A stretch of DNA of 64,000 bases from Escherichia phage naam: the sequence record MN850630.1. One strand, 5' to 3'. The notes beneath the pieces were generated by a model. The model was not told where the DNA came from, did not search any database, and was given only the letters and a program-made list of their open reading frames with translations. Positions 7,931 to 44,461 of this stretch are shown here, piece after piece (within the stretch, counting starts at the first letter, position 1; every line of letters starts with the position of its first letter). A program made the position numbers and the translations under genes.

Positions 7931-7982
7931 TGCTTCACACAAACAGAGCGTTGATTTTTAAATAACTAAGGAGACTGCTAAG

Positions 7983-8237: not shown

Positions 8238-8240
8238 TAC

Positions 8241-8269
8241 TTGACAACAGTGATGGGGCCTAATATAAT
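8241..8269 (+). promoter_or_regulatory. sigma70 consensus promoter (TTGACA-17-TATAAT)
   Basis: TTGACAacagtgatggggcctaaTATAAT directly read. Confidence 0.65.
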
Positions 8270-8300
8270 GGCCCTATCAAAACGAAAGGGGACCACAGCA

Positions 8301-9242: not shown

Positions 9243-9259
9243 TATCAGGAGACCTTAAG

Positions 9260-9505: not shown

Positions 9506-9588
9506 CAAATATCTATTGTAATTTACAGAAGGGGATGCTAAAATAGTGTCTCCTTCTATGTTGTTCAAATAAAATCGGAGATTCCATA

Positions 9589-26088: not shown

Positions 26089-26106
26089 TTTTTTAACTGA
26101 ATTATC

Positions 26107-26132
26107 AAGGGGCTTAGGCCCCTTTCTTTTTG
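26107..26132 (+). terminator. rho-independent terminator
   Basis: AAGGGGC-ttag-GCCCCTT + TCTTTTTG. Confidence 0.65.
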
Positions 26133-26135
26133 TCT

Positions 26136-28580: not shown

Positions 28581-28581
28581 G

Positions 28582-28797
28582 TCAGTCCAGCGGTTCATCC
28601 TCTACTTCACTGAAATCAATGTTCATGGTCTCTTCCCAACCATCGATCTCAGCACAAGAGTGGAGTTCTTTAGGGTTTACTCCCAAAGCCTCAGCAACAG
28701 AGTCTATATTTAACACCTCTGGCAGGTATGATTCATCGAATTCAAGGTAAATCAGGCCACGAGTGTTGTCAGCTCCACCAAATATCTCTATCTTCAT
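28582..28797 (-). CDS. small acidic protein
   Basis: 71 aa, GAGGAG RBS. Confidence 0.5.
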   Translation of the reverse strand: MKIEIFGGADNTRGLIYLEFDESYLPEVLNIDSVAEALGVNPKELHSCAEIDGWEETMNIDFSEVEDEPLD

Positions 28798-28918
28798 AAA
28801 ATCTCCTCTGGGAATGAGAGTGTGAACAGGGTTTTATACGTTCCAATACGCTGGAATTATGCACGTTTGCCTCTTCAGGCCATGCTTTAGCATGAGGAAC
28901 CTGTGTGGGCTCGGTGCT

Positions 28919-29131
28919 TCATAGTCTACCACCTCTGAACTCTTCGTGCTCAGGCATAATAGAGAACCAGATATCTACGATGTCCTCCCACGTCAGGTCA
29001 TCAGCCTCAGGATCTGTCTGGGACGAAGATGAAGAGTCCTCAGAATCTAAGTTTTCCTCTTTAACTGGCTCATCCAAGGGACATATGGTCACTCCTTTGG
29101 ATGTCTCTTCAGATGCATGTGTGTTGATCAT
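28919..29131 (-). CDS. small acidic Ser-rich protein
   Basis: 70 aa, AGGTGGG RBS. Confidence 0.5.
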   Translation of the reverse strand: MINTHASEETSKGVTICPLDEPVKEENLDSEDSSSSSQTDPEADDLTWEDIVDIWFSIMPEHEEFRGGRL

Positions 29132-29229
29132 GTCCCACCTGTGAGTATTCCGGCAACAGCCGCTATGGACGTAATGATCATCAGGATCACCACTAAAACT
29201 TCGGACAATGTTCTCATTGTGTATTCCAT
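29128..29229 (-). CDS. small membrane peptide (33 aa)
   Basis: Hydrophobic; stop overlaps next ATG (ATGA); weak RBS. Confidence 0.35.
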   Translation of the reverse strand: MEYTMRTLSEVLVVILMIITSIAAVAGILTGGT

Positions 29230-29249
29230 ATTCTACAAACTATGTGTGG

Positions 29250-29278
29250 ATACTATCACGAGAGCGGTAATGTGTCAA
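29250..29278 (-). promoter_or_regulatory. sigma70-type promoter (TTGACA-17-TAGTAT)
   Basis: Hexamers on minus strand with 17-nt spacer. Confidence 0.5.
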
Positions 29279-29440
29279 CAGAAACGCCGCGAGGGTTTGG
29301 TTAAAATCCGAGCGTATGGTGATTTGGGTCAAAACGGACGTGCGTTCTCGCTACGCTCGAAAGAGAGATTTGTTTGTAGGAAGCTCTTAAACGCTCTGTA
29401 ATGAGATTATCTGTCCAAGGTATGCAATCGTGCACCAGAT

Positions 29441-29466
29441 AAAGAAAAGGACGCCACAGAGCGTCC
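29441..29466 (-). terminator. rho-independent terminator
   Basis: GGACGC-tctgtg-GCGTCC + TTTTCTTT on minus strand. Confidence 0.55.
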
Positions 29467-29491
29467 TAGGTGTCTTAAATTTGATATTTTG

Positions 29492-29803
29492 CTATACCCA
29501 TGAGGGCTTATCAAGGTTGGAGTAGCTGAAAGGTGTCAAAAGGTGACTGTCAAAATCTCTCAAACTATCTAAATCTTTTTCCTCGTCCTGACACCATCTG
29601 TGCCTACATTTATTGTTGTAGTGCATAGAATGCATAGCGTTCTGCAATTTAACAGGCACAAGTGATTCAGGAGTAGATAGTATTGTTGGGTATGCCAGAA
29701 CCACCTCAAACAGTGGAAACACATCGAAACTAAAGTCTACCTCTGCAGAGGTTGATGGCATGTAAGAGTATTTAGCCGCCTTTGTAGACATAATCCACCT
29801 CAC
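29492..29803 (-). CDS. hypothetical protein
   Basis: 103 aa ORF, start overlaps upstream stop. Confidence 0.5.
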   Translation of the reverse strand: MRWIMSTKAAKYSYMPSTSAEVDFSFDVFPLFEVVLAYPTILSTPESLVPVKLQNAMHSMHYNNKCRHRWCQDEEKDLDSLRDFDSHLLTPFSYSNLDKPSWV

Positions 29804-30126
29804 ACAGGTTTGATAATACCTTTACCGAATAACTCTTCGTATCTAATCTTATCCGGATCCCACTCCTGGATAATTTCGAAGACAATATCCAACCCTGGGA
29901 TAATCACTTCTCCAGTGTCGAGCTTAGCAAGAACAAAACCGGAAGGTTGAATGGTTTCCCAGTTGCGCCGATTGGAATAGAAGACCTCGAAAATATCGCC
30001 GACCTTTATCTGTTGATCAAGATGTTCAAGATTCTCTTTCATATAGACGCAGCGGATTTTTCGTGCAGGCCATAGACCACCTGCATCACGTTCATTTAGC
30101 TCTTTTACAGTAATCGGTATACCCAT
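29800..30126 (-). CDS. hypothetical protein
   Basis: 108 aa, GAAGGAGA RBS. Confidence 0.55.
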   Translation of the reverse strand: MGIPITVKELNERDAGGLWPARKIRCVYMKENLEHLDQQIKVGDIFEVFYSNRRNWETIQPSGFVLAKLDTGEVIIPGLDIVFEIIQEWDPDKIRYEELFGKGIIKPV

Positions 30127-30147
30127 CTCAAATCTCCTTCATAGATA

Positions 30148-30176
30148 GTAAAAAGAGGGGCCCAAGCCCCCCTCTT
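30148..30176 (-). terminator. rho-independent terminator
   Basis: AGAGGGGGC-ttgg-GCCCCTCT + TTTT on minus strand. Confidence 0.6.
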
Positions 30177-30181
30177 TGTCA

Positions 30182-30487
30182 TTATTCTACAGAGCGTTTG
30201 AACAGAATGTCTGCCTCAGACATGTGCTCAACCTCTTCTTCGATTTTAGCGCGACGTTTTTCAGCCTCATAGCGGATATCGAACTCGGTAGCCACCAGAG
30301 ATTTGATGAATTTAGGAGAATACAGGTGATCCTGCTTCTCAACGAGAATGATATCCTTAATGGCATCTTTCAGATCTTTAATCTGAAGTTGGAGTTCCAC
30401 CAGTTCTTCGATTGTTTTGCGAAGGCGATCACGCTCTGCAGTGTCAGAAGGAAGAGAGGTGAACAGTTCAACTTTAGATTTAGCCAT
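30182..30487 (-). CDS. hypothetical coiled-coil protein
   Basis: 101 aa, AAGGAGA RBS. Confidence 0.55.
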   Translation of the reverse strand: MAKSKVELFTSLPSDTAERDRLRKTIEELVELQLQIKDLKDAIKDIILVEKQDHLYSPKFIKSLVATEFDIRYEAEKRRAKIEEEVEHMSEADILFKRSVE

Positions 30488-30515
30488 AGTAAGAGTCTCC
30501 TTATGTTGTTTTAAA

Positions 30516-30767
30516 TTAGCGTTCTACAAAAATACCGTTCAGTTCAATAACCAGGAATTTCTGGTCTTCACTATCGTCTCGTGCCAGCACCTCACAGACG
30601 TATCGGTCATCCCCATCATCATCGCAGTCAAATACAAGACTGAGGACTTTATCATTATAAACCTTCGCCACTACCGCCTCGTAAGTATTGCCGATTGTGA
30701 ATCCAAGATAATCTCCGATGCATTTGACAACAACATGGTCGCCAGCATTCAAGTCAATCTTCGTCAT
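30516..30767 (-). CDS. small acidic protein
   Basis: ATG at 30767 after AAGGAGCG; D/E-rich. Confidence 0.5.
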   Translation of the reverse strand: MTKIDLNAGDHVVVKCIGDYLGFTIGNTYEAVVAKVYNDKVLSLVFDCDDDGDDRYVCEVLARDDSEDQKFLVIELNGIFVER

Positions 30768-30894
30768 TACTGCGCTCCTTGGGTAATAATACTGTATGTA
30801 AAACTTTAACCAGAGATGTGAATAACGCCCCAAAACACACCGATAGCGCTAAAACAGACAAGGCCATCATCAAAGCTTCAGTAAAATCAGTCAT
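30754..30894 (-). CDS. small membrane peptide (46 aa)
   Basis: GAGGTGAGGA RBS; hydrophobic helix; overlaps next start by 14 nt. Confidence 0.35.
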   Translation of the reverse strand: MTDFTEALMMALSVLALSVCFGALFTSLVKVLHTVLLPKERSNDED

Positions 30895-30913
30895 TCCTCA
30901 CCTCTTGTTAGTC

Positions 30914-30942
30914 ACTATACTATCATTTATCCTTGCCGTCAA
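30914..30942 (-). promoter_or_regulatory. sigma70-type promoter (TTGACG-17-TATAGT)
   Basis: Hexamers on minus strand. Confidence 0.5.
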
Positions 30943-31186
30943 GAACTTTTTTAAATCTTTCAGGGATATCCCCCGTTCTTAGATAGTTCATGACCTCACA
31001 AGGTTCCCACTTGAATTTCTTACAGAGCAGGGCGGCTGAGATTGTTTCATTGCGAAAAGAAAGGATATTAATATCCCACTCTGAGAACCCCAACTTCCGA
31101 AGGGTAGCTACAGAAATCCTCACCGCAACCCAGCAGCAAAAACATGCAACAAACGCCACTGCTACAACCCACATCAGGATGTTCAT
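30923..31186 (-). CDS. putative membrane-anchored protein
   Basis: 87 aa, N-terminal hydrophobic helix, AAGGTG RBS. Confidence 0.5.
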   Translation of the reverse strand: MNILMWVVAVAFVACFCCWVAVRISVATLRKLGFSEWDINILSFRNETISAALLCKKFKWEPCEVMNYLRTGDIPERFKKVLDGKDK

Positions 31187-31275
31187 ATAAGCACCTTACT
31201 GAAATACAAGACACAGTGTTAAGGTTACTGACCAGCAAATAATTAGCAGGACCATTGCAACCTTGGCAAGATTTA

Positions 31276-31563
31276 TCATAGTGCCTCTAAGATTTCATAT
31301 CCTTCAGGTCGAAATACAAGCCACTCCGTGGCTCCGTTTGGTCGATACGCTTTATACAGAACAACCTGATCTCGGCACATGCACATGGCTACATAGTTTT
31401 CATCCACACCTGCAGCCTGCATTGCATCTTCTTCTCCGGCAACTGCTTTGCTTACAACTTCCTTGGTAGGCAGGTGTGCGATCAGCTCGTCACCATCATT
31501 AATTCCAAAATGACTGAGTTCTCCATTGGTATCTTTAATCTTAATCTTAACCAGATCTTTCAT
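31276..31563 (-). CDS. small acidic protein
   Basis: 95 aa; in tightly packed array with stop-start overlaps. Confidence 0.5.
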   Translation of the reverse strand: MKDLVKIKIKDTNGELSHFGINDGDELIAHLPTKEVVSKAVAGEEDAMQAAGVDENYVAMCMCRDQVVLYKAYRPNGATEWLVFRPEGYEILEAL

Positions 31564-31892
31564 TAGTCTTTCTCCAGGTTCAAAGGTCCTAAGATTTCAT
31601 ATGCCAGATTAGAAGTTACCAGAGGGTCTTCTGCATCTTTAGTATTGTACCACCCGTGAATAACCAGAGTCCCACTTTGTTTCATATCCAACTGGAACTG
31701 TTCTGCAGTTTCCTCATCCATCTCTAAGATCTCCATGAGGTATTTGATGTTAGGAAGGTATGCAGCTGTTACAGTTCCCTCTACCAAACCTTCGGGCCAA
31801 CCTACATCCGGATGACAAGTAGGAACCAGATTAGTCAGCTTAATAGTGTACGCTTTTTCTGCACGAGCCTTCAGTAACGGGTCAATCTTCAT
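31563..31892 (-). CDS. small acidic protein
   Basis: 109 aa. Confidence 0.5.
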   Translation of the reverse strand: MKIDPLLKARAEKAYTIKLTNLVPTCHPDVGWPEGLVEGTVTAAYLPNIKYLMEILEMDEETAEQFQLDMKQSGTLVIHGWYNTKDAEDPLVTSNLAYEILGPLNLEKD

Positions 31893-32242
31893 TATTCGTC
31901 CTCCTCTTCGGTGCCTGCTTCCAGTAATAAGTTAAGAATATCTTCTGCACAAGGTTCATAGAACTCTTGGCCTTCATTATCGATGATTTTGTAGTCATCT
32001 CCACGAATAATCAGGGGATCACTCTCAAAATTATCGAGACCTTTAACAACGACAACACGATCGATTGCCATCATTGTAAGAACTTTATCGACATCTTCCT
32101 CTGCTACACCATACTGCAGCAGAATGTCTTTGGTAGGAGGAACAGCATCCACCACAACGCCGTTACCAAAACCTTCTGGGAGTTTAGCTAAAATATCTTC
32201 CGGAACCACATTCACATCAAAACCGGTAATTTCTACTTTCAT
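31892..32242 (-). CDS. small highly acidic protein (paralog family C)
   Basis: 116 aa, very D/E-rich; similar to 32243..32503 and 33667..33936. Confidence 0.55.
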   Translation of the reverse strand: MKVEITGFDVNVVPEDILAKLPEGFGNGVVVDAVPPTKDILLQYGVAEEDVDKVLTMMAIDRVVVVKGLDNFESDPLIIRGDDYKIIDNEGQEFYEPCAEDILNLLLEAGTEEEDE

Positions 32243-32503
32243 TTACAGCACCTCTTCGTCAACTACTTCATAAAAATGGCCTGGGATTGCAATAGCGTTC
32301 TCACCTTCACCTACAAACACAGTTCCGTCAAGAATCAACATCATAAGAATTTCTGTAATATCCTCTTCCGGAACGTTGCCAAAACCTTTAATCAGCTCGT
32401 AGGTTGGAATATTTACCTCTAAGATGTCACCATCTTTAGAACGGAAATCAACACCGTCCTGAATCTCTGCCGTTTCAAGGTTTTTCAATTTAATCTTCAT
32501 CAA
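32243..32503 (-). CDS. small acidic protein (paralog family C)
   Basis: 86 aa. Confidence 0.55.
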   Translation of the reverse strand: MMKIKLKNLETAEIQDGVDFRSKDGDILEVNIPTYELIKGFGNVPEEDITEILMMLILDGTVFVGEGENAIAIPGHFYEVVDEEVL

Positions 32504-32579
32504 TCGGTCTCCTGTCTTGTTAAGATGAAGGTATTATTTCACACAGGGTTGGCGTTGTCAACACCTGTGTGCAAGAAAA

Positions 32580-32975
32580 TTACTGAAACAGTGCGGATAA
32601 ATTACCTTCTGGTGGGAACTTATCTGCCAAAAACGGTGTTAGCACAGTAGCCTTCTGAAGATCTGGGGTCCACTCGTTGTTCAGAACATCCCAGTAGTAC
32701 GCAATGTTGCTGTGTGGGTGCCGCATTACGAACTTTTTTCCTTCGTAGTCATCTGAAACCTCTACAGAAGAAATAACAACAGAATCTTCAAGGGTTTCTT
32801 CATAGAAAGATCCGCCTTCAAATTTCCAACGAGATGCAAGAGCCCCTGCCTTGAACGCTGCAGATAACGGACTGTCGGCAAGAACATACATTTCTTGCAC
32901 TCTGTCGCTGCGATCTTTGCTTCTTACGTTGTATACAGTATCTGAGCTATACTCAACACGGTATAGGCTTACCAT
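32580..32975 (-). CDS. hypothetical protein (paralog family B)
   Basis: 131 aa; shares HP..YW..W-TP motif region with 34782..35180. Confidence 0.55.
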   Translation of the reverse strand: MVSLYRVEYSSDTVYNVRSKDRSDRVQEMYVLADSPLSAAFKAGALASRWKFEGGSFYEETLEDSVVISSVEVSDDYEGKKFVMRHPHSNIAYYWDVLNNEWTPDLQKATVLTPFLADKFPPEGNLSALFQ

Positions 32976-33307
32976 TACCGCACCTCCTCAATAACTTCCA
33001 CATCTGAACCTACCACAAATGCAAAAGGACAGGTTTCATGAAAGACATCCGGATCGCCGCCAAGCTTGCTAACAATCTCTCCACCACTAATAAACACAAG
33101 CTCACCGATATTCATCAGATTGCTGAAATAGTACCCATAATGATTAAAGAATGCAGCAGGGTCAGGTAGACTAGTAGCCTCAAGCACTACATCAGTTGAG
33201 GTTACTTTCTTATCATAACCTCTCGCCTTTTGAGATGCAAGATCTGCAGAATCCTCAGGCGACCGGAGATGCACAGGAATTGTTTCACCAATAAAGCGTA
33301 CTTTCAT
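32975..33307 (-). CDS. small acidic protein (family A-like)
   Basis: ATG at 33307 (MKVRFIGE...), track start 33334 is TTG. Confidence 0.5.
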   Translation of the reverse strand: MKVRFIGETIPVHLRSPEDSADLASQKARGYDKKVTSTDVVLEATSLPDPAAFFNHYGYYFSNLMNIGELVFISGGEIVSKLGGDPDVFHETCPFAFVVGSDVEVIEEVR

Positions 33308-33311
33308 ATTA

Positions 33312-33575
33312 TCACCCAACAACCATAGCTTCAAAAGGGGTCATGAACGAATAAACGGCATCATCATCTGCTTCAGGGAATGCTCCCAAAGACTTCATGT
33401 CTGAGCCCTTGACAAATACAAGGTTTTGATCAAAAGCTTCTTGAGGATCAATCCGATACATATTTCGTAGAATATCGCCTACCTCCTCATCAAGAGGTGA
33501 GTATGCTGTGCACGTTTTTCCGATCAAGCTTTGAGAATCAGGGTATCCACCTGAAGTTTTAAAATAAACAATCAT
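33312..33575 (-). CDS. small acidic protein (family A-like)
   Basis: 87 aa. Confidence 0.5.
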   Translation of the reverse strand: MIVYFKTSGGYPDSQSLIGKTCTAYSPLDEEVGDILRNMYRIDPQEAFDQNLVFVKGSDMKSLGAFPEADDDAVYSFMTPFEAMVVG

Positions 33576-33666
33576 ATAGTATCACCTCTGGTAAGAGATT
33601 GGGATTCCTTTCCCACAAATAATTACAAACCTTCCTTATCGAGGAAGTATGCTAATCCAAGCAGGA

Positions 33667-33936
33667 TTATTCCTCTACAATCTCATACACATCCGGAGTT
33701 ACAATCAACTCTTCTCCGTTACCCGGTGCAACAAACACCACCATGCCTTCAGGTGTGTGCTTTTTAGCCATCTCGATAACATCTTCTCGCAGAGCTGGCT
33801 CCATCAGATCAAAACCTTCACCCAGGGCATCACGAACCACCTTCATATAGTCAACTGGTTGTGCTTCGACAATCATACCTTCAACCAGTTCACAGTTTTT
33901 GTCTGCCAGCTCAGTTTTGAATAATTTAATTTTCAT
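33667..33936 (-). CDS. small acidic protein (paralog family C)
   Basis: 89 aa. Confidence 0.55.
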   Translation of the reverse strand: MKIKLFKTELADKNCELVEGMIVEAQPVDYMKVVRDALGEGFDLMEPALREDVIEMAKKHTPEGMVVFVAPGNGEELIVTPDVYEIVEE

Positions 33937-33962
33937 TTAGAGGTCTCCTCAATTATTTGATA

Positions 33963-34064
33963 TTAATAGCCGTAACCTAACACATTAACTACAACTGCGA
34001 TTGCAAACATAATTTCAAAGCATGCAATCTCTACATTTGGGACTAATTTCTTGATCACACCCAT
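33963..34064 (-). CDS. small membrane peptide (33 aa)
   Basis: GAGGTG RBS; hydrophobic. Confidence 0.35.
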   Translation of the reverse strand: MGVIKKLVPNVEIACFEIMFAIAVVVNVLGYGY

Positions 34065-34073
34065 TGTAGCACC

Positions 34074-34391
34074 TCATTCTCTAAAGTCAATCTTTACTTT
34101 GCCTTTCCCCTTACCTTTCTTTCCACCGCATTTAGCCAGTTGACGTGCTGCAACATCTACCATACGGTCAGTTGCCTCGTAAGCATCACTGCCTTTAGCT
34201 TTGGCAATAACTTCTTTTCCAGAATTGTCAAAAATGAACGCCATAACTTCCTGGTGATCATTTTCAACTTTTACACTCACACGTGCATAGTTGGCAGAGG
34301 GATGCAAACGCTCCAGCTTAGACATTTTGTGGGAAATGAAAGACACCATACCTTCAGTGATTTCTACGTTGCCAGTGATTTCAATTTGCAT
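34074..34391 (-). CDS. hpf: ribosome hibernation promoting factor / RaiA-like protein
   Basis: N-terminus MQIEITGNVEITEG matches HPF/YfiA MQLNITG..VEIT; KLER and ARQLAK motifs; 105 aa with Lys-rich tail. Confidence 0.75.
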   Translation of the reverse strand: MQIEITGNVEITEGMVSFISHKMSKLERLHPSANYARVSVKVENDHQEVMAFIFDNSGKEVIAKAKGSDAYEATDRMVDVAARQLAKCGGKKGKGKGKVKIDFRE

Positions 34392-34473
34392 AACGTGTTC
34401 CTTTTAAAGAAGAGGGAACCAAACCCTCTTTGAAAACAATGATACTAAATCTGAAGCGTTGTGTCAACAGTTT

Positions 34474-34764
34474 TTACAGATTGTTGTCGATAGTTTTTAA
34501 AATATCCACAGCAAGATCTGCCATTTTTCGAACATACTCTGCAAACTCAACAGGATCCTTGATCAAAGAATTCACAGGGTCGTACCCTAGAGCGTTCAAA
34601 ATGGCTGCAGCATCTACAACCTTCTCATCATTTGCGAAGATCTCTCCATCAAACTTGTAGGTCCATTTTGAGTCAATCTTGGCAGGGAATGATTGGTCAA
34701 CGCTTGTTACACCATCCTTTTTAAACGCTCCGGTGTTATCAGTGTCTAGAACTAAATCCATCAT
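34474..34764 (-). CDS. small acidic protein
   Basis: 96 aa. Confidence 0.5.
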   Translation of the reverse strand: MMDLVLDTDNTGAFKKDGVTSVDQSFPAKIDSKWTYKFDGEIFANDEKVVDAAAILNALGYDPVNSLIKDPVEFAEYVRKMADLAVDILKTIDNNL

Positions 34765-34781
34765 GTTAGTACCTCACCGTT

Positions 34782-35180
34782 TCAGTTTAGCTTTTCTTCA
34801 ACAACCCCATAGCTCGGGACAGAGTCAAGAGCTTTCTGGTTTAAAAGTGGTGTAGCAGAATCTGCAAACGGTGTCCAAGTTTTTGTTCTGGCATTCCAGT
34901 AATGCTTCACTCTGGAATCTGGATGCACTATAACAAAAACTTTTTCACTTGTCAACACATTAATTTCTTCTACACCCTTGCTGATAATTTCTCCGTCATA
35001 GCCACCAGTCTGGTATCCTTCGTACCAGGTTCTTGCATATGCATAGCCAGCCTGCCAGCATGCAGCCTCCTCCGAGGTGGAGACTACGTAGAAGTCTTTC
35101 TCAAATTCTGGGATACGCCCTTGCTTTACGCTCCAAGCTCCGCGAATTTTCATTGTAACTTTGAACAGTTTATTTTTCAC
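34782..35180 (-). CDS. hypothetical protein (paralog family B)
   Basis: 132 aa, paralog of 32580..32975. Confidence 0.55.
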   Translation of the reverse strand: MKNKLFKVTMKIRGAWSVKQGRIPEFEKDFYVVSTSEEAACWQAGYAYARTWYEGYQTGGYDGEIISKGVEEINVLTSEKVFVIVHPDSRVKHYWNARTKTWTPFADSATPLLNQKALDSVPSYGVVEEKLN

Positions 35181-35192
35181 AACGGTTACCCA

Positions 35193-35447
35193 TCACAGCT
35201 CTACAATCTCTGCATCTGACCCTGCCCCAAAGGCATAATAGGATTCTTCCCCGAAATAATATTCCGGTGCACCAGCAGCGATCAGGTCTGATCCCAAGAT
35301 AAACACCACGTTGTGGCCTACATAACTGTGATGTTGCCGCACAGGATCATCCCACGGCAACCCTTCAAAGTATACCGCAGGAACGACCTTTCCCTTCAGG
35401 AAGGATTGTCCCAAGTAGACGTTAGAATCAAGAATTTTAACCTTCAT
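35193..35447 (-). CDS. small acidic protein (paralog family A)
   Basis: MKVKILDSNVYLGQ...GKV N-terminus shared with 35437..35664 and 39075..39308. Confidence 0.55.
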   Translation of the reverse strand: MKVKILDSNVYLGQSFLKGKVVPAVYFEGLPWDDPVRQHHSYVGHNVVFILGSDLIAAGAPEYYFGEESYYAFGAGSDAEIVEL

Positions 35448-35664
35448 TCTCGTCCTCCACTATCTCTACATCCTCACCAAGGGCAAAGTTGTAGGTCCAC
35501 TGGCTGTCAAAGCAGTCCTGAGATGCACCAGCGGAAATAAGATCTGCACCTTTTATTTTTAAAAGGTCAGGATAATCTTCGTTAGGGATAGCGGTAAACA
35601 CTTTCCCCACTAAGGGCTCCTGACCAATATAGAAGCTTGAATCTAAAACTTTAACTTTCATCAA
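35437..35664 (-). CDS. small acidic protein (paralog family A)
   Basis: MKVKVLDSSFYIGQ...GKV. Confidence 0.55.
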   Translation of the reverse strand: MMKVKVLDSSFYIGQEPLVGKVFTAIPNEDYPDLLKIKGADLISAGASQDCFDSQWTYNFALGEDVEIVEDENEG

Positions 35665-35948
35665 CGGTCTCCCTCAGGCGGTTGTGGGACGTAAACACTG
35701 TTACGAATATCGTCAGCAGTGTAGTAATAAGTGGTTCCAACCCTATCTCGGGCTGCAATGTACTCTGCTATACCAATAAGTGCCATTGATTTGGTGGCGT
35801 ATCTTCCCCACTCGTTAGCTCCCCAGTAGAATTTAGACCAGTAGGGAATAATACCGAACAAATATACCTTTTGACGAACTTCCCAGTAAGTGCCTTTTCC
35901 GACAAGTTTAAACTCTACTTCACCACTGTTAATCTTTTTCATTATCAA
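35661..35948 (-). CDS. hypothetical protein
   Basis: 95 aa, W/Y-rich. Confidence 0.5.
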   Translation of the reverse strand: MIMKKINSGEVEFKLVGKGTYWEVRQKVYLFGIIPYWSKFYWGANEWGRYATKSMALIGIAEYIAARDRVGTTYYYTADDIRNSVYVPQPPEGDR

Positions 35949-36241
35949 TCTCCCTCTACCGTGGTCGGATTGTCAGTAAGAAATTGAGCATTGGCTGGAG
36001 GCACGCCTGACATTTTCCACACAACCATAAGTTTGTAACCAGGAACTCTATTAAGTGCAGATCGAGTAGAGTTTGTGCACGTATACTTTCGCTTTCCAAA
36101 CCCGTTCTCCATCATAATCCAGTACCCAGTATCTTTGTCACCAGGTATCGGTAGACCACCTTCATCAACCCACTGAATGGACCACGGCACGATGGCTACA
36201 GCTTTATATTTAAACTTTTTAAACCACTCAAAAAGTTTCAT
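35945..36241 (-). CDS. hypothetical protein
   Basis: 98 aa. Confidence 0.5.
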   Translation of the reverse strand: MKLFEWFKKFKYKAVAIVPWSIQWVDEGGLPIPGDKDTGYWIMMENGFGKRKYTCTNSTRSALNRVPGYKLMVVWKMSGVPPANAQFLTDNPTTVEGD

Positions 36242-36244
36242 AAT

Positions 36245-36334
36245 TCAGCCTCGCATAGACATAATCACTATAAACAGGCAAACAATGAATCCGAATGCCA
36301 CGCCACCCATAAACGTTAATATTGATGCAATCAT
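36245..36334 (-). CDS. small membrane peptide (29 aa)
   Basis: Hydrophobic; fills gap between adjacent genes. Confidence 0.35.
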   Translation of the reverse strand: MIASILTFMGGVAFGFIVCLFIVIMSMRG

Positions 36335-36336
36335 AG

Positions 36337-36522
36337 TCAATCAGCCTCGCTTGGCAACTCTTCTACCTTAACATGCCGAAAAGTGTTACCGTAATGGTTG
36401 ATCCATGACATCAGCTCGCTTTCTTGCTCTTCCTCTGGGATGAACTCTCGAATGCTGACAAGTTTTAAGAAAACCCAATCACAATCTGCACCCATTCTAC
36501 CAGACAGGCAATAGTGCTTCAT
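36337..36522 (-). CDS. hypothetical protein
   Basis: ATG at 36522 after GGCGGGGG, avoids overlap with upstream gene. Confidence 0.45.
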   Translation of the reverse strand: MKHYCLSGRMGADCDWVFLKLVSIREFIPEEEQESELMSWINHYGNTFRHVKVEELPSEAD

Positions 36523-36538
36523 AAAACCCCCGCCTGGT

Positions 36539-36733
36539 TTAGAATATTGCTTCTTCCATTGCACCTGAGAGCAACAAAGAGGTGATCTGGCTAACATTCA
36601 TCTCAGACTCTACTTCCTCCCCTTTGAAAGGTTCGCGGCAGAATAGGACTGTTTCAGGACTTTTACTTCGAACAATATAATACAAATCATTCAATGTGTT
36701 GTAGTAATAAGTGTTAAAACGTAAGTTTTTCAT
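36539..36733 (-). CDS. hypothetical protein
   Basis: 64 aa. Confidence 0.45.
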   Translation of the reverse strand: MKNLRFNTYYYNTLNDLYYIVRSKSPETVLFCREPFKGEEVESEMNVSQITSLLLSGAMEEAIF

Positions 36734-37017
36734 TTTCTAGTCCCCTTCTTAGATTTTTGTGTAGAAACGCTTTCTGCAATACGAGACAAACGTTCTTCTG
36801 AAGCCTTGCCTATTCCAGGTTTTTTGAGTGGGTTATCTTTATGACCACAATCCAATTGGATATTGGATACCTCTCCAACCTTGTAAGTCAATTCTAGCAA
36901 AAGGTTGTCGTCCTTGTCAAATGTTCTTACGATAAATTTTTTATCGTTCTCCTGAACTTCGTATCGGGTACCCGCAGTATACAGCATGGTGCCATCCGCA
37001 TAGGATATCCAGATCAT
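36730..37017 (-). CDS. hypothetical protein
   Basis: 95 aa, basic C-terminus. Confidence 0.5.
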   Translation of the reverse strand: MIWISYADGTMLYTAGTRYEVQENDKKFIVRTFDKDDNLLLELTYKVGEVSNIQLDCGHKDNPLKKPGIGKASEERLSRIAESVSTQKSKKGTRK

Positions 37018-37361
37018 TGAACCTCCTTCTGCTGCAACAGCATTAACTCTTTGTTGGAGATTTTTACTGCTGTTTTTATTGTTCCATCTTCACGAAACCA
37101 CGACCAGAACTCTACAGTGTCCCCACTGTCAAGCAAAGCATACCCGTGGTAGAAGTCTTTGTCCTTAGACAGTTTCTCATCTATGTCTGCATCGACACAT
37201 TCGTGATCCATAGCATTTTGCCTGAATGCATCGGTTATACCAATGCACGCCTTGCTCTCAAGACTGGTATATCCGATATCTTTTAATTCAGTTTCCCAAG
37301 TCCAGTACCCTATAAAAGCTAAAACAGCTACCCACATTAATAACGTTTTAATCTTTGGCAT
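37014..37361 (-). CDS. putative membrane/secreted protein
   Basis: N-terminal hydrophobic segment LLMWVAVLAFIGYWTW. Confidence 0.5.
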   Translation of the reverse strand: MPKIKTLLMWVAVLAFIGYWTWETELKDIGYTSLESKACIGITDAFRQNAMDHECVDADIDEKLSKDKDFYHGYALLDSGDTVEFWSWFREDGTIKTAVKISNKELMLLQQKEVQ

Positions 37362-37423
37362 TCTCTCTACCTCTTTCTTAGTTTATTTCACTATGGCACA
37401 TCCTTTGTGCCATATCTCAACCA

Positions 37424-37885
37424 CTACTTAAATAGTAGTCCAAAATAGTGCAAAATTAACAGAAGTTGAACTACACCTAGTGCAACGGCGAGTATGTTAA
37501 TCTTAGAATCGAAAAACTTCTTAACTTTTACTCTAAAAGGTTCCTTAATGTCCTTTACGATCCTATTTATAGATGATTTCATATCCCTGATTACCATCCT
37601 AAACATTAGAGACGGATCTTCCTTCTCTGTAATAGAATCGAAAACATACTCTCTTCGGTCATAAGGACCTCCAGATCTGCGTATTAACCTCTCCACAGAG
37701 ACCTCGTACGACACACCTGTAACGTAATCATCTATGATAAGTAGTGACGGGTCTTTATCGTCCAAGGGTATTAAAGTTATCTTTCCAGATTTTGTTAAAA
37801 TTTCTCCTTTTTCAAGCAAGGTGTACCAATGCTCTCTACCAAGATTGTTGAGGCACGTTTTTACATATTTAACAAACATCGTCAC
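37424..37885 (-). CDS. putative C-terminally membrane-anchored protein
   Basis: 153 aa; C-terminal hydrophobic helix ILAVALGVVQLLLILHYFGLLF. Confidence 0.5.
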   Translation of the reverse strand: MTMFVKYVKTCLNNLGREHWYTLLEKGEILTKSGKITLIPLDDKDPSLLIIDDYVTGVSYEVSVERLIRRSGGPYDRREYVFDSITEKEDPSLMFRMVIRDMKSSINRIVKDIKEPFRVKVKKFFDSKINILAVALGVVQLLLILHYFGLLFK

Positions 37886-38067
37886 CCCTCATCGCACGTC
37901 TGATATAACCACTCTATGAAATCTTGATACCATTCGCCCTCTGAGCGCTCCGTAGGCCAATAATCTTCACCCTCTCGTGCATTAAAATCTGAGTATTCAA
38001 CTTTCCACTCCTTTACCAGCTCGTGGAGAAGGTTTTCAGCCTGCTCTAAAGATTTATTTTTTGCCAT
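37882..38067 (-). CDS. hypothetical protein
   Basis: ATG 38067 after AAAAAGGAGA; track start 38085 is TTG. Confidence 0.45.
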   Translation of the reverse strand: MAKNKSLEQAENLLHELVKEWKVEYSDFNAREGEDYWPTERSEGEWYQDFIEWLYQTCDEG

Positions 38068-38150
38068 TGCTGTCTCCTTTTTCAAGATAGTTATACATCA
38101 GAACTGCACCACCTAAGATGGCTACCAGTAACAATATCCCAGATAGCATC

Positions 38151-38303
38151 TCAATAAACATGGCTTGAAACACTGGAAGGTCTCCCTAAATTAACGCACC
38201 ATTTTAAATACATGCTCTTTTCCCATAAAGGTGCCTGGCTAAGATCTGCGTAGAACGCAATCTCTTTAAGAACAGTATAGATAGTTTTAGGTGCGGTCTC
38301 CAT
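38151..38303 (-). CDS. small hypothetical protein (50 aa)
   Basis: ATG 38303 after AGGAAGGAGAG. Confidence 0.35.
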   Translation of the reverse strand: METAPKTIYTVLKEIAFYADLSQAPLWEKSMYLKWCVNLGRPSSVSSHVY

Positions 38304-38514
38304 CCCTACTCTCCTTCCTGATATTCTTGTAGTAATCAACTAGGCACATTATTACGATGAAGATAACAACAGGCCAAAAAGGTGCAGCAGTGATGATGGT
38401 GATAAAATCATCAAACTTCACCCTTCGTCTGGACACGATGCATACACCTGTCAAGAATACCGCTGTTATAACGGACATTACCAGGTAACCTATTAGCACA
38501 ACATTTATACTCAT
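38287..38514 (-). CDS. putative membrane protein
   Basis: 75 aa, two hydrophobic segments. Confidence 0.45.
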   Translation of the reverse strand: MSINVVLIGYLVMSVITAVFLTGVCIVSRRRVKFDDFITIITAAPFWPVVIFIVIMCLVDYYKNIRKESRDGDRT

Positions 38515-38544
38515 TGGTCCTCCCTTTGTAGGTTAAATTGTATA

Positions 38545-39078
38545 CTACAAATGGTCGCTGAGGGTGTCAAGAAAATTATCCCGTTCTTTCTCAGAGTTTT
38601 CATGTGTGTAGCTGAAAAACATATCGAGAATAACCTTATTGATATATTCCAGCTCCTCTGTGTTCAGATGCTTAGCAGGATCTACAATGACATCCCAAAT
38701 ATCATACAGACCACACTCATGATACCCATAACGCCACTCAATTGTCAAGCTGAGCGGCAAATCTTTACCTTCACAAACAACCTTCCATCTACATATGTTG
38801 GTATCTGGTCGTACCTGTGCACGGTACACCTGCACAAAATCCAATTTGAATTTGAGGTACTCGTCATACAATTTAAGCACAAAGCTCTCGATTTGTGGAG
38901 ACACTTTTGCAGCAAACTGTGCGTATTTGTACTTGCACTGGATGATCTTTCTGCGTTTTGCAGTTAAATTTTTTGCCGCCAGTTGTTCTTCAGTGTATCT
39001 CCACCTACGATCAACAAACGCAACAGGGTCTTTGTCCCCATAGAGGTCTTCCCAGTTAATCAGAAGCATACCTGTCAC
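38545..39078 (-). CDS. hypothetical protein
   Basis: 177 aa. Confidence 0.55.
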   Translation of the reverse strand: MTGMLLINWEDLYGDKDPVAFVDRRWRYTEEQLAAKNLTAKRRKIIQCKYKYAQFAAKVSPQIESFVLKLYDEYLKFKLDFVQVYRAQVRPDTNICRWKVVCEGKDLPLSLTIEWRYGYHECGLYDIWDVIVDPAKHLNTEELEYINKVILDMFFSYTHENSEKERDNFLDTLSDHL

Positions 39079-39308
39079 TCCTCCACAACTTCAAGGCCTT
39101 TACCGCCTCGCTCTGGCAGATTACTTAAAGATAGGTAATACATATAATCAGGAGAGATCCTGCCAGACTCTGCACCTGCAGCTAGTAAATCCTTCCCTTT
39201 AACCAGGACAACATTCTCGTTTGCAGATAGCCGTTTTGCTTCCACAATTTTACCGACACAGTCAACCAAGGAAGGGTACCCTAAATCTGTAAGAAATTTA
39301 ACTTTCAT
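39075..39308 (-). CDS. small protein (paralog family A)
   Basis: MKVKFLTDLGYPS...GKIV; KGKDLLAAGA resembles family A. Confidence 0.5.
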   Translation of the reverse strand: MKVKFLTDLGYPSLVDCVGKIVEAKRLSANENVVLVKGKDLLAAGAESGRISPDYMYYLSLSNLPERGGKGLEVVEE

Positions 39309-39345
39309 GCTACCTCCTACCTACCGTCCCTGGTAAGATAAATTA

Positions 39346-39744
39346 TTACTGAACAGAGCGCGGTGCTGGGAAGGATAACTCTTCTAAAGAGAAGATTTCA
39401 TTTCCTACCACCCAAGTTGCTGGGTCATCTGGATCAACAGGTTGGATAATCATTACCTCATCCGCCTCGCACACACGTTTCCCACCCATAGTAGCGTCAG
39501 CCACTAACATACGCGGCTCTTCAGAAATGCACAGGTAGCCACCTCGGCCCACTGTTCCTTCCACGGGATCCTGCCCTTTGACCACAATGAATACCTTCTC
39601 TCCTGTGGCGATATTACTTTTCACACTAACAGTTTGACCAACTTTAGATGTACCGATCTTGGTGGCTTCAAACATTAAATCCCGAATTACTGTTGCATAG
39701 TTGCCGGACACTTTCTTACCTTCTTTAGTAATCTCAATCTTCAT
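39346..39744 (-). CDS. hypothetical protein
   Basis: 132 aa. Confidence 0.5.
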   Translation of the reverse strand: MKIEITKEGKKVSGNYATVIRDLMFEATKIGTSKVGQTVSVKSNIATGEKVFIVVKGQDPVEGTVGRGGYLCISEEPRMLVADATMGGKRVCEADEVMIIQPVDPDDPATWVVGNEIFSLEELSFPAPRSVQ

Positions 39745-40013
39745 AATCTAGGCTCCTTAAATGAATCTATGTAATCAATTAAATCCCAAGCATCCCTATG
39801 ACCTGTCAGAGGGTATACTTCTCCAAGAGGGATCATAGCAATAAGTCTATCAAAAACCCAATCTGGACGCAACATTTTATGGTGATACTCCCACTCACCT
39901 TCTACAGACTTTTTCTGAGTGATCAGGATCTCTGTGTAGTGTTTCGCCTGTCTTGAGTAGATTGAGAATGACTTGTACATAAATGGCCCCCTCTTGTTGA
40001 AAACAAAATACAC
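39741..40013 (-). CDS. hypothetical protein
   Basis: 90 aa. Confidence 0.5.
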   Translation of the reverse strand: MYFVFNKRGPFMYKSFSIYSRQAKHYTEILITQKKSVEGEWEYHHKMLRPDWVFDRLIAMIPLGEVYPLTGHRDAWDLIDYIDSFKEPRL

Positions 40014-40015
40014 TA

Positions 40016-40303
40016 CTACCAGGTCACTGTCAAGTAGGCAACTGTGTTATTTTTCTCCGGAGAGATGCCAACAACATCCACCTGCAGACCTCCTGCCCTC
40101 AAATCCCCAACAATGTGTGGGAAGTAGTCTGAGAGGTGTGATGGGAGATTTATCGAAAATCCACATCCCAGAAAGCCTGCTAACGCTTTATTTTGTATCT
40201 CCCCAACAATCGCATCATAAATAGAGTTAAGCTCGTCAGGAAGCGTTACAGGACGTTTTAGCGCTAACTGGTGCAACTTGTCCTTAGCACTCATTTTCAT
40301 TTC
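40016..40303 (-). CDS. hypothetical protein
   Basis: Internal ATG chosen to limit overlap with MTase gene. Confidence 0.45.
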   Translation of the reverse strand, partial: EMKMSAKDKLHQLALKRPVTLPDELNSIYDAIVGEIQNKALAGFLGCGFSINLPSHLSDYFPHIVGDLRAGGLQVDVVGISPEKNNTVAYLTVTW

Positions 40304-40830
40304 AAGTCTGCCTCTGGTGGTGCCAACCACATAAATGGCGGCAAGTCTAGACGGTTTTTCTTGTCCCATACAAAATATGCATATGCCTGCCCATCCGTTC
40401 TACCATTAGATTGGAATGACGGACGCTTAGATATTGTGATCACAGTGGTAGGTGCATTATCAAGCCACCATTCAAATCTGGCCTTGCTTTCCAGAAAATT
40501 AAGACGCAAAAGCATAATAACTACGTCGGCATCTTTCAACGCCTTGTCCACAAACTCACGAGCCAGGCTGTACGGCGGGTTGGTGATAATACAGTCAACA
40601 TGGTTGTATTCTGTATTCAGATAGTCAACACCTTCTTGGATTTCTCCCCATGCAGATCCTAACGGCATACGGGAGTAGAACACACCTGAGGCACTATTCC
40701 TGCAAGGCTCTAAGTAGGTCCAGTCTTCTGGGAACGGAATAAGGTAATACAGCCCTTCTGCACACCACTCCGGTGTCACATACTCATCGTAGGCGTTACG
40801 TTGTTCATCAGGTTTTCTAGCACAAGTCAT
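40297..40830 (-). CDS. DNA N6-adenine methyltransferase-like (small amino-MTase)
   Basis: Motif ITNPPYS (NPPY catalytic motif), YVTPEW N-terminal motif. Confidence 0.6.
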   Translation of the reverse strand: MTCARKPDEQRNAYDEYVTPEWCAEGLYYLIPFPEDWTYLEPCRNSASGVFYSRMPLGSAWGEIQEGVDYLNTEYNHVDCIITNPPYSLAREFVDKALKDADVVIMLLRLNFLESKARFEWWLDNAPTTVITISKRPSFQSNGRTDGQAYAYFVWDKKNRLDLPPFMWLAPPEADLK

Positions 40831-40844
40831 GCAAATCTCCAGAT

Positions 40845-40868
40845 CATAAAAGCCCTCCGAAGAGGGCT
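40845..40868 (-). terminator. rho-independent terminator
   Basis: AGCCCTC-ttcg-GAGGGCT + TTTTAT on minus strand after ClpP-like gene. Confidence 0.55.
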
Positions 40869-40881
40869 TTAGAATTAATGT

Positions 40882-41931
40882 TTAAGCTTCTTCGACAATT
40901 CCTGCACCCAGGATTTTTTCATTGAGCTCTTTTGCTGTTTTAATAATATTGTCCACAAGACGCTTGCGAGTCTTATCTTTCACCTTAACCTCTTCACCGC
41001 CGTTCAGAGTAGTCTTCAATTGAGACAGAATATCCTGAAGTTCAACGACAGAGAATCTCTGCAGATCTTCTGAAGTAATCTCACCCAGGGCAATTCGGAC
41101 GGTCTCGCCACTTTCCATCTGCAGATTCAGGAACACAGTGTGAACATCACCTTTCGAACCACCCGCTTTTGCAGATTCAACAGCATGAACTAACTCATCT
41201 AAAGATGTGCACTGATGAATCTCCGGAAGACCTGCTTCACCTAACACGCCTTCTTCATCACCTTTTGCCAGAAGCTTTTTCGGTTTTTGTCCGTTCTGGA
41301 TGCGTTGTATGTTGCCTTCATCCAGAATAATAGCTCCAGTGCGTGCTGCCAACTCTTCTCCGTCCAACCACACTTCGCCACCAGCTGTGATGGATGCGAT
41401 CTCATCTTCTGTCAGCACCCCACCGTAGTATTTTTCGATCAGGTGTTCAAAACGTTTTTTCCAGTAGCTGACCTGAGTATTCATGTTAACACCGTTACCA
41501 TAAGTGCCACCTTGATAGTAGTGGAACATAAATTCTGTGTCCGGAGCCACAGTACGTTCTTTGCAACCAAGCCATAAGATTGTTCCAGCAGAGCAGCACA
41601 TCCCTTCAGCATGTGCAACAACGCTTGCCTGAGACTCGCGGAATGCCTGCAGATAGGCCATTGCAATGTGCACGCAACCACCAGGGCTATTGATGATCAC
41701 ACGAATGCTTTCTTCCGGCTGCGCCATACGGATCGTCTGCAGACGAGACATATGATCCTGCAGGTCCTCCAAATCGTCGATATAAAGAACGTGGTCAACA
41801 ACAGGTGTTGGGTAGCTGTATGTTTCCATGATACCGCCCGGCATACCAAACATTTTATTACTCATAGGTTCGAAACCGTTCTGTTTTTCTTTCATGCCGT
41901 GTACCATGGTGCTGCGAGGTGTTAAATTCAT
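40882..41931 (-). CDS. ClpP-family serine protease-like protein with C-terminal extension
   Basis: INSPGG, GMCCSAGT (Ser motif), FHYYQGG (His motif) as in ClpP; about 150-aa coiled-coil-like C-terminal region. Confidence 0.7.
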   Translation of the reverse strand: MNLTPRSTMVHGMKEKQNGFEPMSNKMFGMPGGIMETYSYPTPVVDHVLYIDDLEDLQDHMSRLQTIRMAQPEESIRVIINSPGGCVHIAMAYLQAFRESQASVVAHAEGMCCSAGTILWLGCKERTVAPDTEFMFHYYQGGTYGNGVNMNTQVSYWKKRFEHLIEKYYGGVLTEDEIASITAGGEVWLDGEELAARTGAIILDEGNIQRIQNGQKPKKLLAKGDEEGVLGEAGLPEIHQCTSLDELVHAVESAKAGGSKGDVHTVFLNLQMESGETVRIALGEITSEDLQRFSVVELQDILSQLKTTLNGGEEVKVKDKTRKRLVDNIIKTAKELNEKILGAGIVEEA

Positions 41932-43754: not shown

Positions 43755-44228
43755 TTAGTCAACCTGAACCCAACCATCTGCTACCTTTTTAAACATTCTT
43801 TGGTTATCACTGCCTCTAAAGGGTTTTTTGGTGGGGTTATCTTTTTCGTACTTACCGTCCATAATGTAATCAACACTATCTTTAATGTAATCGGGGACTT
43901 CTTCAAACAAATACCCTGTGTACACCCAGATAGTTTTTGTGTTGCCGAAGTGTTCACGGATAGCGCGAATGATCGAGTACATACCATCAATATTGTAAGG
44001 CGCTAAAGGTTCGCCACCGCATAATGTAACGCCAGTAATGTGTTTCGGCTCTATAGAGTGAAGTATACTCTCAATAGTGTCATTTGTTAACGGTTCCCCT
44101 TTAGCTGGTGACCAAACACTTTTGTTTTGGCAACCGACGCAGTGATGTGGGCAACCAGAACAGAACACCGTTGTCCTAATGCCTGGGCCGTCAACCATGC
44201 TACACTCTATAATATTAACAACATTCAT
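43755..44228 (-). CDS. nrdG: anaerobic ribonucleotide reductase activating protein (radical SAM)
   Basis: DGPGIRTTVFCSGCPHHCVGCQN cysteine motif; near nrdD. Confidence 0.85.
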   Translation of the reverse strand: MNVVNIIECSMVDGPGIRTTVFCSGCPHHCVGCQNKSVWSPAKGEPLTNDTIESILHSIEPKHITGVTLCGGEPLAPYNIDGMYSIIRAIREHFGNTKTIWVYTGYLFEEVPDYIKDSVDYIMDGKYEKDNPTKKPFRGSDNQRMFKKVADGWVQVD

Positions 44229-44461
44229 TCCTTATCCTCTTTTAGGTAAGGATATTCAGGCCCACAATAAGCTCTATCCAAGAAAACAGCTTCTTCCCCT
44301 CTGGAATCAGTAGATCTATAATACCCATCACCATGGTAACTAACGAACCAGTGGCACCCATCATCGCTTTCTACTGTTGTGGCTCTGTCCGAATGAAAGA
44401 TAATTTCGTAATCCTTACCGAATGTAAACCATCTGTTAGCTTTTACACAGACACCTATCAT
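44225..44461 (-). CDS. hypothetical protein
   Basis: 78 aa, ATGA overlap with nrdG. Confidence 0.5.
   Translation of the reverse strand: MIGVCVKANRWFTFGKDYEIIFHSDRATTVESDDGCHWFVSYHGDGYYRSTDSRGEEAVFLDRAYCGPEYPYLKEDKE

Follow-up and report, generated by a model that had tools for sequence, protein, structure and literature searches.

Large lytic coliphages carry tens of kilobases of small uncharacterized genes, and the locus described here raises the question of whether such genes are related to one another and what their products might do. The window is a 64,000-nucleotide stretch of Escherichia phage naam (sequence record MN850630.1), a Vequintavirus, that is, an rV5-like Escherichia coli myophage. 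Between 28.6 and 39.3 kb, its minus strand is filled with short genes. The original prediction, made from the letters alone, described about 35 such genes with stop-start overlaps, proposed at least three duplicated families of small acidic proteins (A, B, and C), likened the many Asp- and Glu-rich members to DNA-mimic anti-restriction proteins, and suggested that the arrays might encode host-takeover or anti-defence effectors. By sequence comparison, twelve genes are assigned to three paralogous families (five in A, two in B, and five in C), and families A and C are predicted to adopt an SH3-like small β-barrel fold.

The listed minus-strand open reading frames (ORFs) are all present at the coordinates given and are annotated as coding sequences (CDSs) in more than 100 Vequintavirus genomes. 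The closely related phage RudolfGeigy (Bas52) has 39 annotated CDSs across ~28.6–39.3 kb; therefore, the estimate of about 35 genes was fair. The twelve family members, with their rV5 gene names and lengths in amino acids (aa), are as follows.

39075..39308, minus strand: family A, gp122, 77 aa; phrog_5009 at E = 8e-36; BLASTP to 35437 at 2e-6
35437..35664, minus strand: family A, gp135, 74–75 aa (ATG at 35661); query of the family A structure model
35193..35447, minus strand: family A, gp136, 84 aa; BLASTP to 35437 at E = 8e-15, 41% identity; phrog_5009 at 4e-32
33312..33575, minus strand: family A, gp142, 87 aa; independent profile E = 1.6e-7; hhalign 85–93% to core members
32975..33307, minus strand: family A, gp143, 110 aa; independent profile E = 6.6e-5; hhalign 95.4% to 35193 over 38 columns
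34782..35180, minus strand: family B, gp137, 132 aa, isoelectric point (pI) 7.8; phrog_7379 at 5e-74; hhalign match to 32580–32975 (the BASEL annotation uses a shorter start, 35153)
32580..32975, minus strand: family B, gp144, 131 aa; phrog_7379 at 2e-66; BLASTP to 34782 at 7.5e-10
33667..33936, minus strand: family C, gp141, 89 aa, 22% Asp plus Glu (D/E); leave-one-out profile E = 3.2e-3; hhalign 49% to 31276 over 84 columns
32243..32503, minus strand: family C, gp145, 85 aa (ATG at 32500), 22% D/E; leave-one-out profile 2.2e-4; hhalign 81.7% to 31892 over 83 columns
31892..32242, minus strand: family C, gp146, 116 aa, 25% D/E, net charge −21; query of the family C model
31563..31892, minus strand: family C, gp147, 109 aa; leave-one-out profile 5.1e-5; hhalign 81.2% to 31892 over 76 columns
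31276..31563, minus strand: family C, gp148 + gp149, 95 aa; leave-one-out profile 4.6e-5

Three paralogous families

An all-against-all BLASTP comparison took in 36 minus-strand products. It connected the core members of family A to each other (35193 versus 35437, E = 8e-15 with 41% identity; 35437 versus 39075, 2e-6; 35193 versus 39075, 7e-4). The two members originally called probable, gp142 and gp143, had weaker BLASTP links and were examined with a hidden Markov model (HMM) built from the three core A proteins and distant homologues, from which the tested candidates were excluded. Run on the 469 ORFs of the window, it matched 33312–33575 at E = 1.6e-7 and 32975–33334 at E = 6.6e-5; the next match had E = 0.25, and no members beyond the known set were found. 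The hhalign probabilities that link these two proteins to family A are 85–95%, and the five-member family A is upheld by BLASTP for its core and by the independent HMM and hhalign for the other two. The family B pair was likewise confirmed, with a BLASTP E-value of 7.5e-10 between 32580 and 34782 and an hhalign probability of 97.4% (E = 1e-11, 121 columns).

Pairwise BLASTP is weak within family C (31892 versus 32243, E = 4e-4; 32243 versus 33667, only 0.92). In HMM searches that left out one subfamily at a time, the omitted gene was the best non-training match in five of five cases, with E-values of 1.6e-7, 2.2e-4, 3.2e-3, 4.6e-5, and 5.1e-5 over a background of E ~ 1. Because these HMMs recover every omitted gene, family C is assigned five members, with 31276–31563 and 31563–31892 added to the three first proposed; the family is real but had been drawn too small. 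Four of its genes form an unbroken tandem (31276–32503). In hhalign, 31892–32243 and 31892–31563 each score ~81%, and the profile-profile links grew stronger after orthologues from a divergent relative were added. Pairwise and profile alignments together (BLASTP, HMM, and hhalign) thus gave significant similarity in all three families. In the rV5 reference, the gp148/149 orthologue is split into two overlapping CDSs, gp148 (213 nt) and gp149 (135 nt) (contig L022, 9526–9796), a split that points either to a frameshift in the type phage or to an error in its sequencing.

Further candidate members among the small ORFs at 28582, 28919, 29800, 30516, 34474, and 39346 gave nothing significant by HMMs or hhalign. 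A union of A and C into one superfamily by sequence was also rejected: hhalign gave a probability of only 7.7% (E = 0.0045), though the alignment is topologically consistent, and the family A HMM ranks family C members at the top of the noise (E = 0.25–0.39). Therefore, a shared fold is claimed for A and C, but not homology.

Domain searches and predicted fold

The earlier impression that none of these proteins contains a known domain proved correct. In an hmmscan against Pfam-A at E ≤ 1, ten proteins matched no family (Ocr and ArdA being covered only if they are in that Pfam copy), and all twelve members gave no match in Pfam and NCBIfam, where ArdA gave no NCBIfam match above noise. The SH3 and KOW models of Pfam did not match at E ≤ 1, and sequence relatives in the PDB at E ≤ 10 were noise only. 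Searches with Pfam and PHROGs disclosed no homology of the family members to virion structural families; the only gene in the block with a virion structural label, in the rV5 record, is gp128 (window 37424–37885). For family B, PDB profile searches gave noise only, and Pfam and NCBIfam gave no signal. A note in rV5 that gp137 is similar to a Listeria phage A118 protein was not reproduced at E ≤ 0.01.

The window proteins are full-length members of PHROG groups (E = 1e-32 to 1e-76). The core of family A (35193, 35437, and 39075) matches phrog_5009 at E = 4e-32 to 1e-36, which 33312 matches weakly (1e-4) and 32975 does not match. The two A outliers belong to phrog_13920 and phrog_13661, family B belongs to phrog_7379, and the members of family C are placed in five singleton groups (phrog_11868, 12359, 12155, 12457, and 12794). 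PHROGs therefore splits A into three groups and C into five, and records neither the links between groups, nor the fold, nor the paralog-array structure.

AlphaFold models were built from the 35437 query for family A and the 31892 query for family C, with predicted local distance difference test (pLDDT) scores of 90 and 75, respectively. Both families are predicted to form an SH3-like small β-barrel of five antiparallel strands, which superposes on SH3, KOW, and PsaE. Proteins of the same predicted fold class include PetP, OapB, the C-terminal domain of PhnA, and the C-terminal domain of retroviral integrase. However, the sequence identity to such barrels is 4–23%, and family A has its own conserved motifs (MKVKxL, GGYxG, GKV, GxDLIxAGA, and YxF). 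A short helix follows strand 3, the window proteins are acidic rather than basic, and the loop between strands 2 and 3 carries large insertions, two helices in the case of family C.

These insertions are the main difference among members. In the alignment, gp136 has an insertion of ~20 residues between strands 2 and 3, and gp142 has an acidic one of ~26 residues. In gp143, the C-terminal half is plainly A-like, and the large insertions are in the N-terminal half. The two-helix segment of the family C model lies between strands 2 and 3, at the same site as the insertions in gp136, gp142, and gp143. The models therefore indicate that A and C share both a fold and an insertion site, and that members differ mainly by what is inserted in the strand 2–3 loop. 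The gp146 model has an additional acidic C-terminal helix, predicted with low confidence. The gp122 protein is predicted to be a stand-alone barrel, the type nearest to the homologues in lambdoid phages.

A Foldseek search against predicted viral structures matched only uncharacterized small phage proteins. Many of these are barrels of 60–90 aa from T4-like, T1-like, T5-like, and other phages. In BFVD, the top structural match of gp142 comes from Shigella phage CM1, also a Vequintavirus (E = 3e-4, template modeling score 0.80). This 87-aa protein is probably the gp142 orthologue, as judged by length and phage identity only. With a third of the block in three families, two of them on one simple fold, twelve unknowns are reduced to about three problems.

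Genomic context and expression of the block

Over the 8.5 kb surrounding the paralogs, nucleotide identity is 99.5% with Escherichia phage ime and 99.4% with RudolfGeigy, and this stretch matches 121 phage records, nearly all from rV5-like Vequintavirus. Eighteen GenBank records named "Campylobacter phage" (MG0656xx, e.g., MG065653, MG065658, and MG065666; host Campylobacter jejuni) are also 95–97% identical to the block; they are probably mislabeled or contaminant genomes.

In RudolfGeigy, the minus-strand unit runs from ligase, exonuclease, thymidylate synthase, and Nrd genes through PhoH, a ClpP-like protease, and a Dam-type methylase into the 39 small CDSs, which terminate at ~28.5 kb, where they converge on a plus-strand block of small genes. 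In rV5, genes 82–163 form one of four transcription units and share it with DNA-metabolism genes (PMC3606486). The region is the accessory section at the distal end of a long transcription unit on the minus strand. In the order of transcription, it reads A(39075) ... A(35437) A(35193) B(34782) x HPF x C(33667) A(33312) A(32975) B(32580) C C C C, where x denotes another gene, and about a third of it consists of recognizable paralogs (12 genes). The HPF gene and the two annotated promoters are as follows.

34074..34391, minus strand: phage ribosome hibernation factor (HPF/RaiA-like, rV5 gp139), not a family member; PF02482 Ribosomal_S30AE at E = 1.8e-12
34439..34467, minus strand: sigma-70-type promoter, TTGACA/17-nt spacer/TATCAT, rV5 P144; 5' of the HPF gene; annotated in rV5
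32533..32561, minus strand: sigma-70-type promoter with extended −10, TTGACA/17-nt spacer/AATAAT, rV5 P150; 5' of the four-gene family C run; annotated in rV5

The HPF gene sits between the paralogs, and the order HPF-C-A-A-B is kept in two other contigs (L020 and L021). Several GenBank records (naam, ECP26, HMD-6, and others) label 33667–33936 a "sigma 54 modulation factor". That label is not supported: this protein matches neither PF02482 nor any other Pfam family, whereas its neighbor at 34074–34391 does match (1.8e-12). The label has probably spilled over from the HPF gene.

Between 28.4 and 41 kb, the minus strand has 12 sites with at least 10 of 12 matches to the sigma-70 consensus and the plus strand has none; shuffled sequences give 2.4 ± 1.6. 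Several of them fall in the few intergenic gaps, and two are P144 and P150, the latter being directly followed by gp145. The rV5 paper lists 33 sigma-70-type promoters genome-wide and does not mention paralogs or duplications (PMC3606486). From these sites, we infer that the block is transcribed by the host sigma-70 polymerase. Early expression is plausible; since coding strand and promoter strand coincide window-wide, the promoters do not prove the timing. Literature searches on Vequintavirus early genes, transcriptomes, and anti-defence turned up nothing on these genes.

Short gaps of a few bases and stop-start overlaps are frequent between genes. Where neighbors in 28500–40900 lie this close together, the last codons of the upstream gene hold the Shine-Dalgarno sequence of the next (GAGGAG or GGAGG), which gives C-terminal EE, EG, or GD; an in-frame GAGGAG encodes the Glu-Glu at the C-termini of gp122, gp143, gp145, and gp146. 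This arrangement explains part of the resemblance among the "...EVVEE" and "...VEE" C-termini, as well as some of the acidity.

Duplication, divergence, and dispensability

The order A-A-B occurs twice, at 35437-35193-34782 and at 33312-32975-32580. The A genes in second position (32975 and 35193) are mutual best matches, and the B genes are each other's only relatives. These reciprocal pairings suggest, at the sequence level, that at least one A-B pair was duplicated as a segment. A strictly collinear duplication of three genes was rejected, because 33312 pairs about equally with 39075, 35193, and 35437 once divergent orthologues are added.

All twelve genes are under purifying selection. The pooled ratios of nonsynonymous to synonymous substitution rates (dN/dS) against ECP26, SYGMH1, and HMD-6 are 0.03–0.15, similar to those of the HPF and methylase controls. 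Orthologues within the genus share 81–100% protein identity, and the array is stable over more than 100 genomes. Fast diversification within the genus is therefore ruled out by the dN/dS values. A different picture emerges from a divergent relative, a 16.9-kb metagenomic contig (Logan ERR4623479, L020) that carries the same block at 1–10253. Most family members there are only 29–58% identical to those of the window (gp146 29%, gp144 40%; the gp135-type A protein 66%), while most neighboring genes are 57–87% identical. Most of the families have therefore outpaced their surroundings over deep time. The description of the array as diversifying is thus appropriate for this long time scale, but not within the genus. 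With this contig, deeper profiles can also be built for all genes of the block.

In L020, the first A-A-B cassette has decayed: the gp136 counterpart is truncated, with 44 aa left, and an unrelated gene of 96 aa takes the place of gp137. A further gene of 98 aa (phrog_1273) is inserted in L020 between B and the run of family C genes; a precomputed PF27050 label for it was not reproduced by hmmscan. Natural hybrids occur among proteins encoded on metagenomic or assembly contigs. In P0014 and P0017, both of 70 aa, a gp135-type N-terminal half is joined at the conserved DLIxAGA motif to a gp136-type C-terminal half. In P0081, a DUF7399 N-terminus is followed by the second half of a gp147-type family C protein.

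A natural deletion of ~3.8 kb is present in phage EduardKellenberger (MZ501061), which was isolated on K-12.

34880..38700 (approximate), no strand: interval absent from EduardKellenberger; tblastn finds no match for the genes there, and a fused CDS remains

The deletion (~34.9–38.7 kb) takes gp135, gp136, and most of gp137, together with roughly a dozen other small genes. Its remnant (contig L016, 6581–7048) is a fused ORF of a gp123-like part (similar to 38545–39078) and the last 33 residues of gp137. Because this phage grows on K-12, two A genes, one B gene, and about a dozen neighbors are dispensable there. The fused ORF is annotated as a "putative glycosidase", a label without Pfam support for 38545–39078. 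As judged from the hybrids, the decay in L020, and the natural deletion, copy number still shifts by recombination between neighboring paralogs.

Distribution outside Vequintavirus

Family A reaches beyond this genus. With tblastn, proteins 41–49% identical to family A were found in the lambdoid phages mEp021, mEp554, and mEp013; in mEp021, the gene lies in a run of small genes between Q and holin. An HMMER search of 1.84 billion representative proteins gave only ~40 family A clusters (50% identity) at E ≤ 1e-3. Nearly all are stand-alone proteins of 63–87 aa with common motifs. A few longer homologues have two or three tandem domains (P0110 and P0109) or an additional C-terminal region, and P0109, P0117, P0125, P0127, and P0129 gave no Pfam match and PHROG matches of unknown function only.

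A pattern scan retrieved 11 viral contigs with family A. In the prophage-like ones, which carry an integrase, the gene lies between recombination genes and the integrase. Other unrelated viral contigs have two to five copies, mostly adjacent, beside DNA polymerase or primase genes, and in one (L012) the polymerase gene is flanked by five copies. Relatives of families B and C were not found outside Vequintavirus-type contigs, and in the wider Vequintavirinae the families were not found at tblastn sensitivity.

The T4 "hyperplastic regions", the SPO1 host-takeover module, and the lambdoid "morons" are accessory arrays of small genes. The present block resembles them in being a dense series of short, coupled, uncharacterized genes with host-type promoters that vary among relatives and are individually dispensable, and the family A homologues occupy the classic Q-holin accessory slot of the morons. 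It differs from them in that a third of the block consists of paralogs of three families, and in that the array is stable genus-wide. The paralogs have the look of common accessory genes that the phage can do without, as is normal in the genomes of large lytic phages.

Possible functions of the small barrels

A host-directed function is plausible for these accessory families. With a probability of roughly 0.5, the barrels are small modules for protein binding, each of which sequesters or inhibits a single macromolecule of the host (or the phage) in the course of takeover or counter-defence. In such a mechanism, the host sigma-70 polymerase would transcribe the genes from internal promoters, and many of them would be translationally coupled. 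The variable strand 2–3 loops would set the specificity, and duplication followed by loop change would produce new specificities. The barrels would not work as DNA mimics of the Ocr/ArdA type against restriction. Most members have an acidic pI, which is more in keeping with a protein partner than with a nucleic acid.

Several points weigh against this proposal. Homology between A and C is undemonstrated (hhalign 7.7%, E = 0.0045), and confidence in the family C model is moderate; the alignment from which it was built is also the one whose homology was under test. The near-consensus sigma-70 sites track the coding strand over the whole window. The source-database names are "hypothetical protein", with the exception of the "sigma 54" label of 33667–33936, and the PHROG annotations are all "unknown function". 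Dispensability extends to no more than two A genes and one B gene, and is shown for K-12 alone.

If the barrels are host-directed binders, family A would add to the takeover or counter-defence proteins a class that is both new and widely scattered; if they are not, the analysis still corrects an unsupported annotation in which acidic means DNA mimic. The system is tractable by experiment. EduardKellenberger provides a natural deletion strain, and there is a public collection of phages whose defence-system phenotypes are defined. A bolder extension, which we consider rather unlikely, is that A, C, and the uncharacterized phage barrels of 60–90 aa all represent one phage-wide miniature SH3-like binder scaffold, with A-A-B forming a complex. 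Duplication and loop insertion would then create specificities against host factors or defence proteins, and the arrays would amount to a natural binder library, a rich source of undescribed anti-defence or takeover inhibitors.

The proteins might instead be phage-internal adaptors that tether the replication or nucleotide-metabolism enzymes of the phage itself. The block does follow ligase, exonuclease, ThyA, Nrd, PhoH, and ClpP-like genes in the same transcription unit, and family A relatives flank DNA polymerase or primase/helicase genes in four contigs (L009 and L011–L013). However, an isolate without two A genes and one B gene is viable, family A also occurs in lambdoid accessory slots (Q-holin and next to the integrase), and the families are missing, at tblastn sensitivity, from the wider Vequintavirinae, in which replication genes are core. 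We therefore regard this role as unlikely.

Still less probable is the DNA-mimic role raised by the original prediction, in which acidic members would titrate type I restriction enzymes, the bacteriophage exclusion (BREX) system, or nucleoid proteins. Ocr, ArdA, and Arn act as DNA mimics, and Ocr is an elongated, all-helical protein whose surface carboxylates imitate B-DNA. Ocr and ArdA are phage- or plasmid-encoded and made early. The window proteins are also small and acidic, and gp146, with 116 aa, 25% D/E, and a net charge of −21, is similar to Ocr (T7 gp0.3) and ArdA in length and comparable in charge; 32243, 33667, and 35437 contain 20–22% D/E. Because DNA mimics are known in many different folds, a barrel is in itself compatible with mimicry.

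The acidity is, however, less general than "many strongly D/E-rich" members would imply. The D/E content is 20–25% in four of the twelve (gp146, gp145, gp141, and gp135) and 12–18% in the other eight, with pI 7.8 for the neutral gp137 (34782–35180) and 5.4 for 39075–39308. The block as a whole is moderately acidic (median pI 4.9 versus ~6.0 in the rest of the window), and some of the C-terminal acidity comes from the embedded Shine-Dalgarno sequences. Homology to Ocr or ArdA was rejected on sequence (Pfam, which returned nothing at E ≤ 1, and NCBIfam) and on fold: the AlphaFold comparison gave, for A and C, an SH3-like barrel with helical inserts instead of an elongated imitator of B-DNA. In addition, Vequintavirinae are reported in the BASEL study to show exceptional sensitivity to restriction-modification systems (PMC8594841), a result that speaks against an Ocr-like role. 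Ocr/ArdA-type mimicry was therefore not supported, and a DNA-mimic role in general, including one of family C proteins against some other DNA-binding target, seems improbable.

Equally improbable are RNA- or ribosome-directed regulators acting with the neighboring hibernation factor. Binding to RNA or ribosomes is common among barrels of the KOW, L24, Sm, and OapB types, but here the likeness reaches only the level of the fold. The pI values are 4.0–5.4 and the alignments show no conserved basic positions, the reverse of what is seen in known RNA-binding barrels, and the family A homologues of other phages are not beside an HPF gene.

Other observations in the window

Between the converging gene blocks, ~2.4 kb (26100–28500) contain no convincing ORF, tRNA gene, or Rfam match. 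The GC content falls to 0.40 there, and scattered short repeats are present. They comprise a 20-nt direct repeat whose copies (26750 and 27011) are exact, an 18-nt inverted repeat that is likewise perfect (26783 and 26917), and CCGGCGGGGCAGGGG, which occurs at 27724 and 27872. The rV5 paper draws a "non-coding" box somewhere on its own genome map (PMC3606486). This interval is a possible origin of replication or regulatory region.

Two weak paralog pairs occur elsewhere in the window. One is a tandem on the plus strand (7983–8237 and 8250–8561, E = 3e-5), and the other spans the two strand blocks (7106–7333 on the plus strand and 44225–44461 on the minus strand, E = 1e-4).

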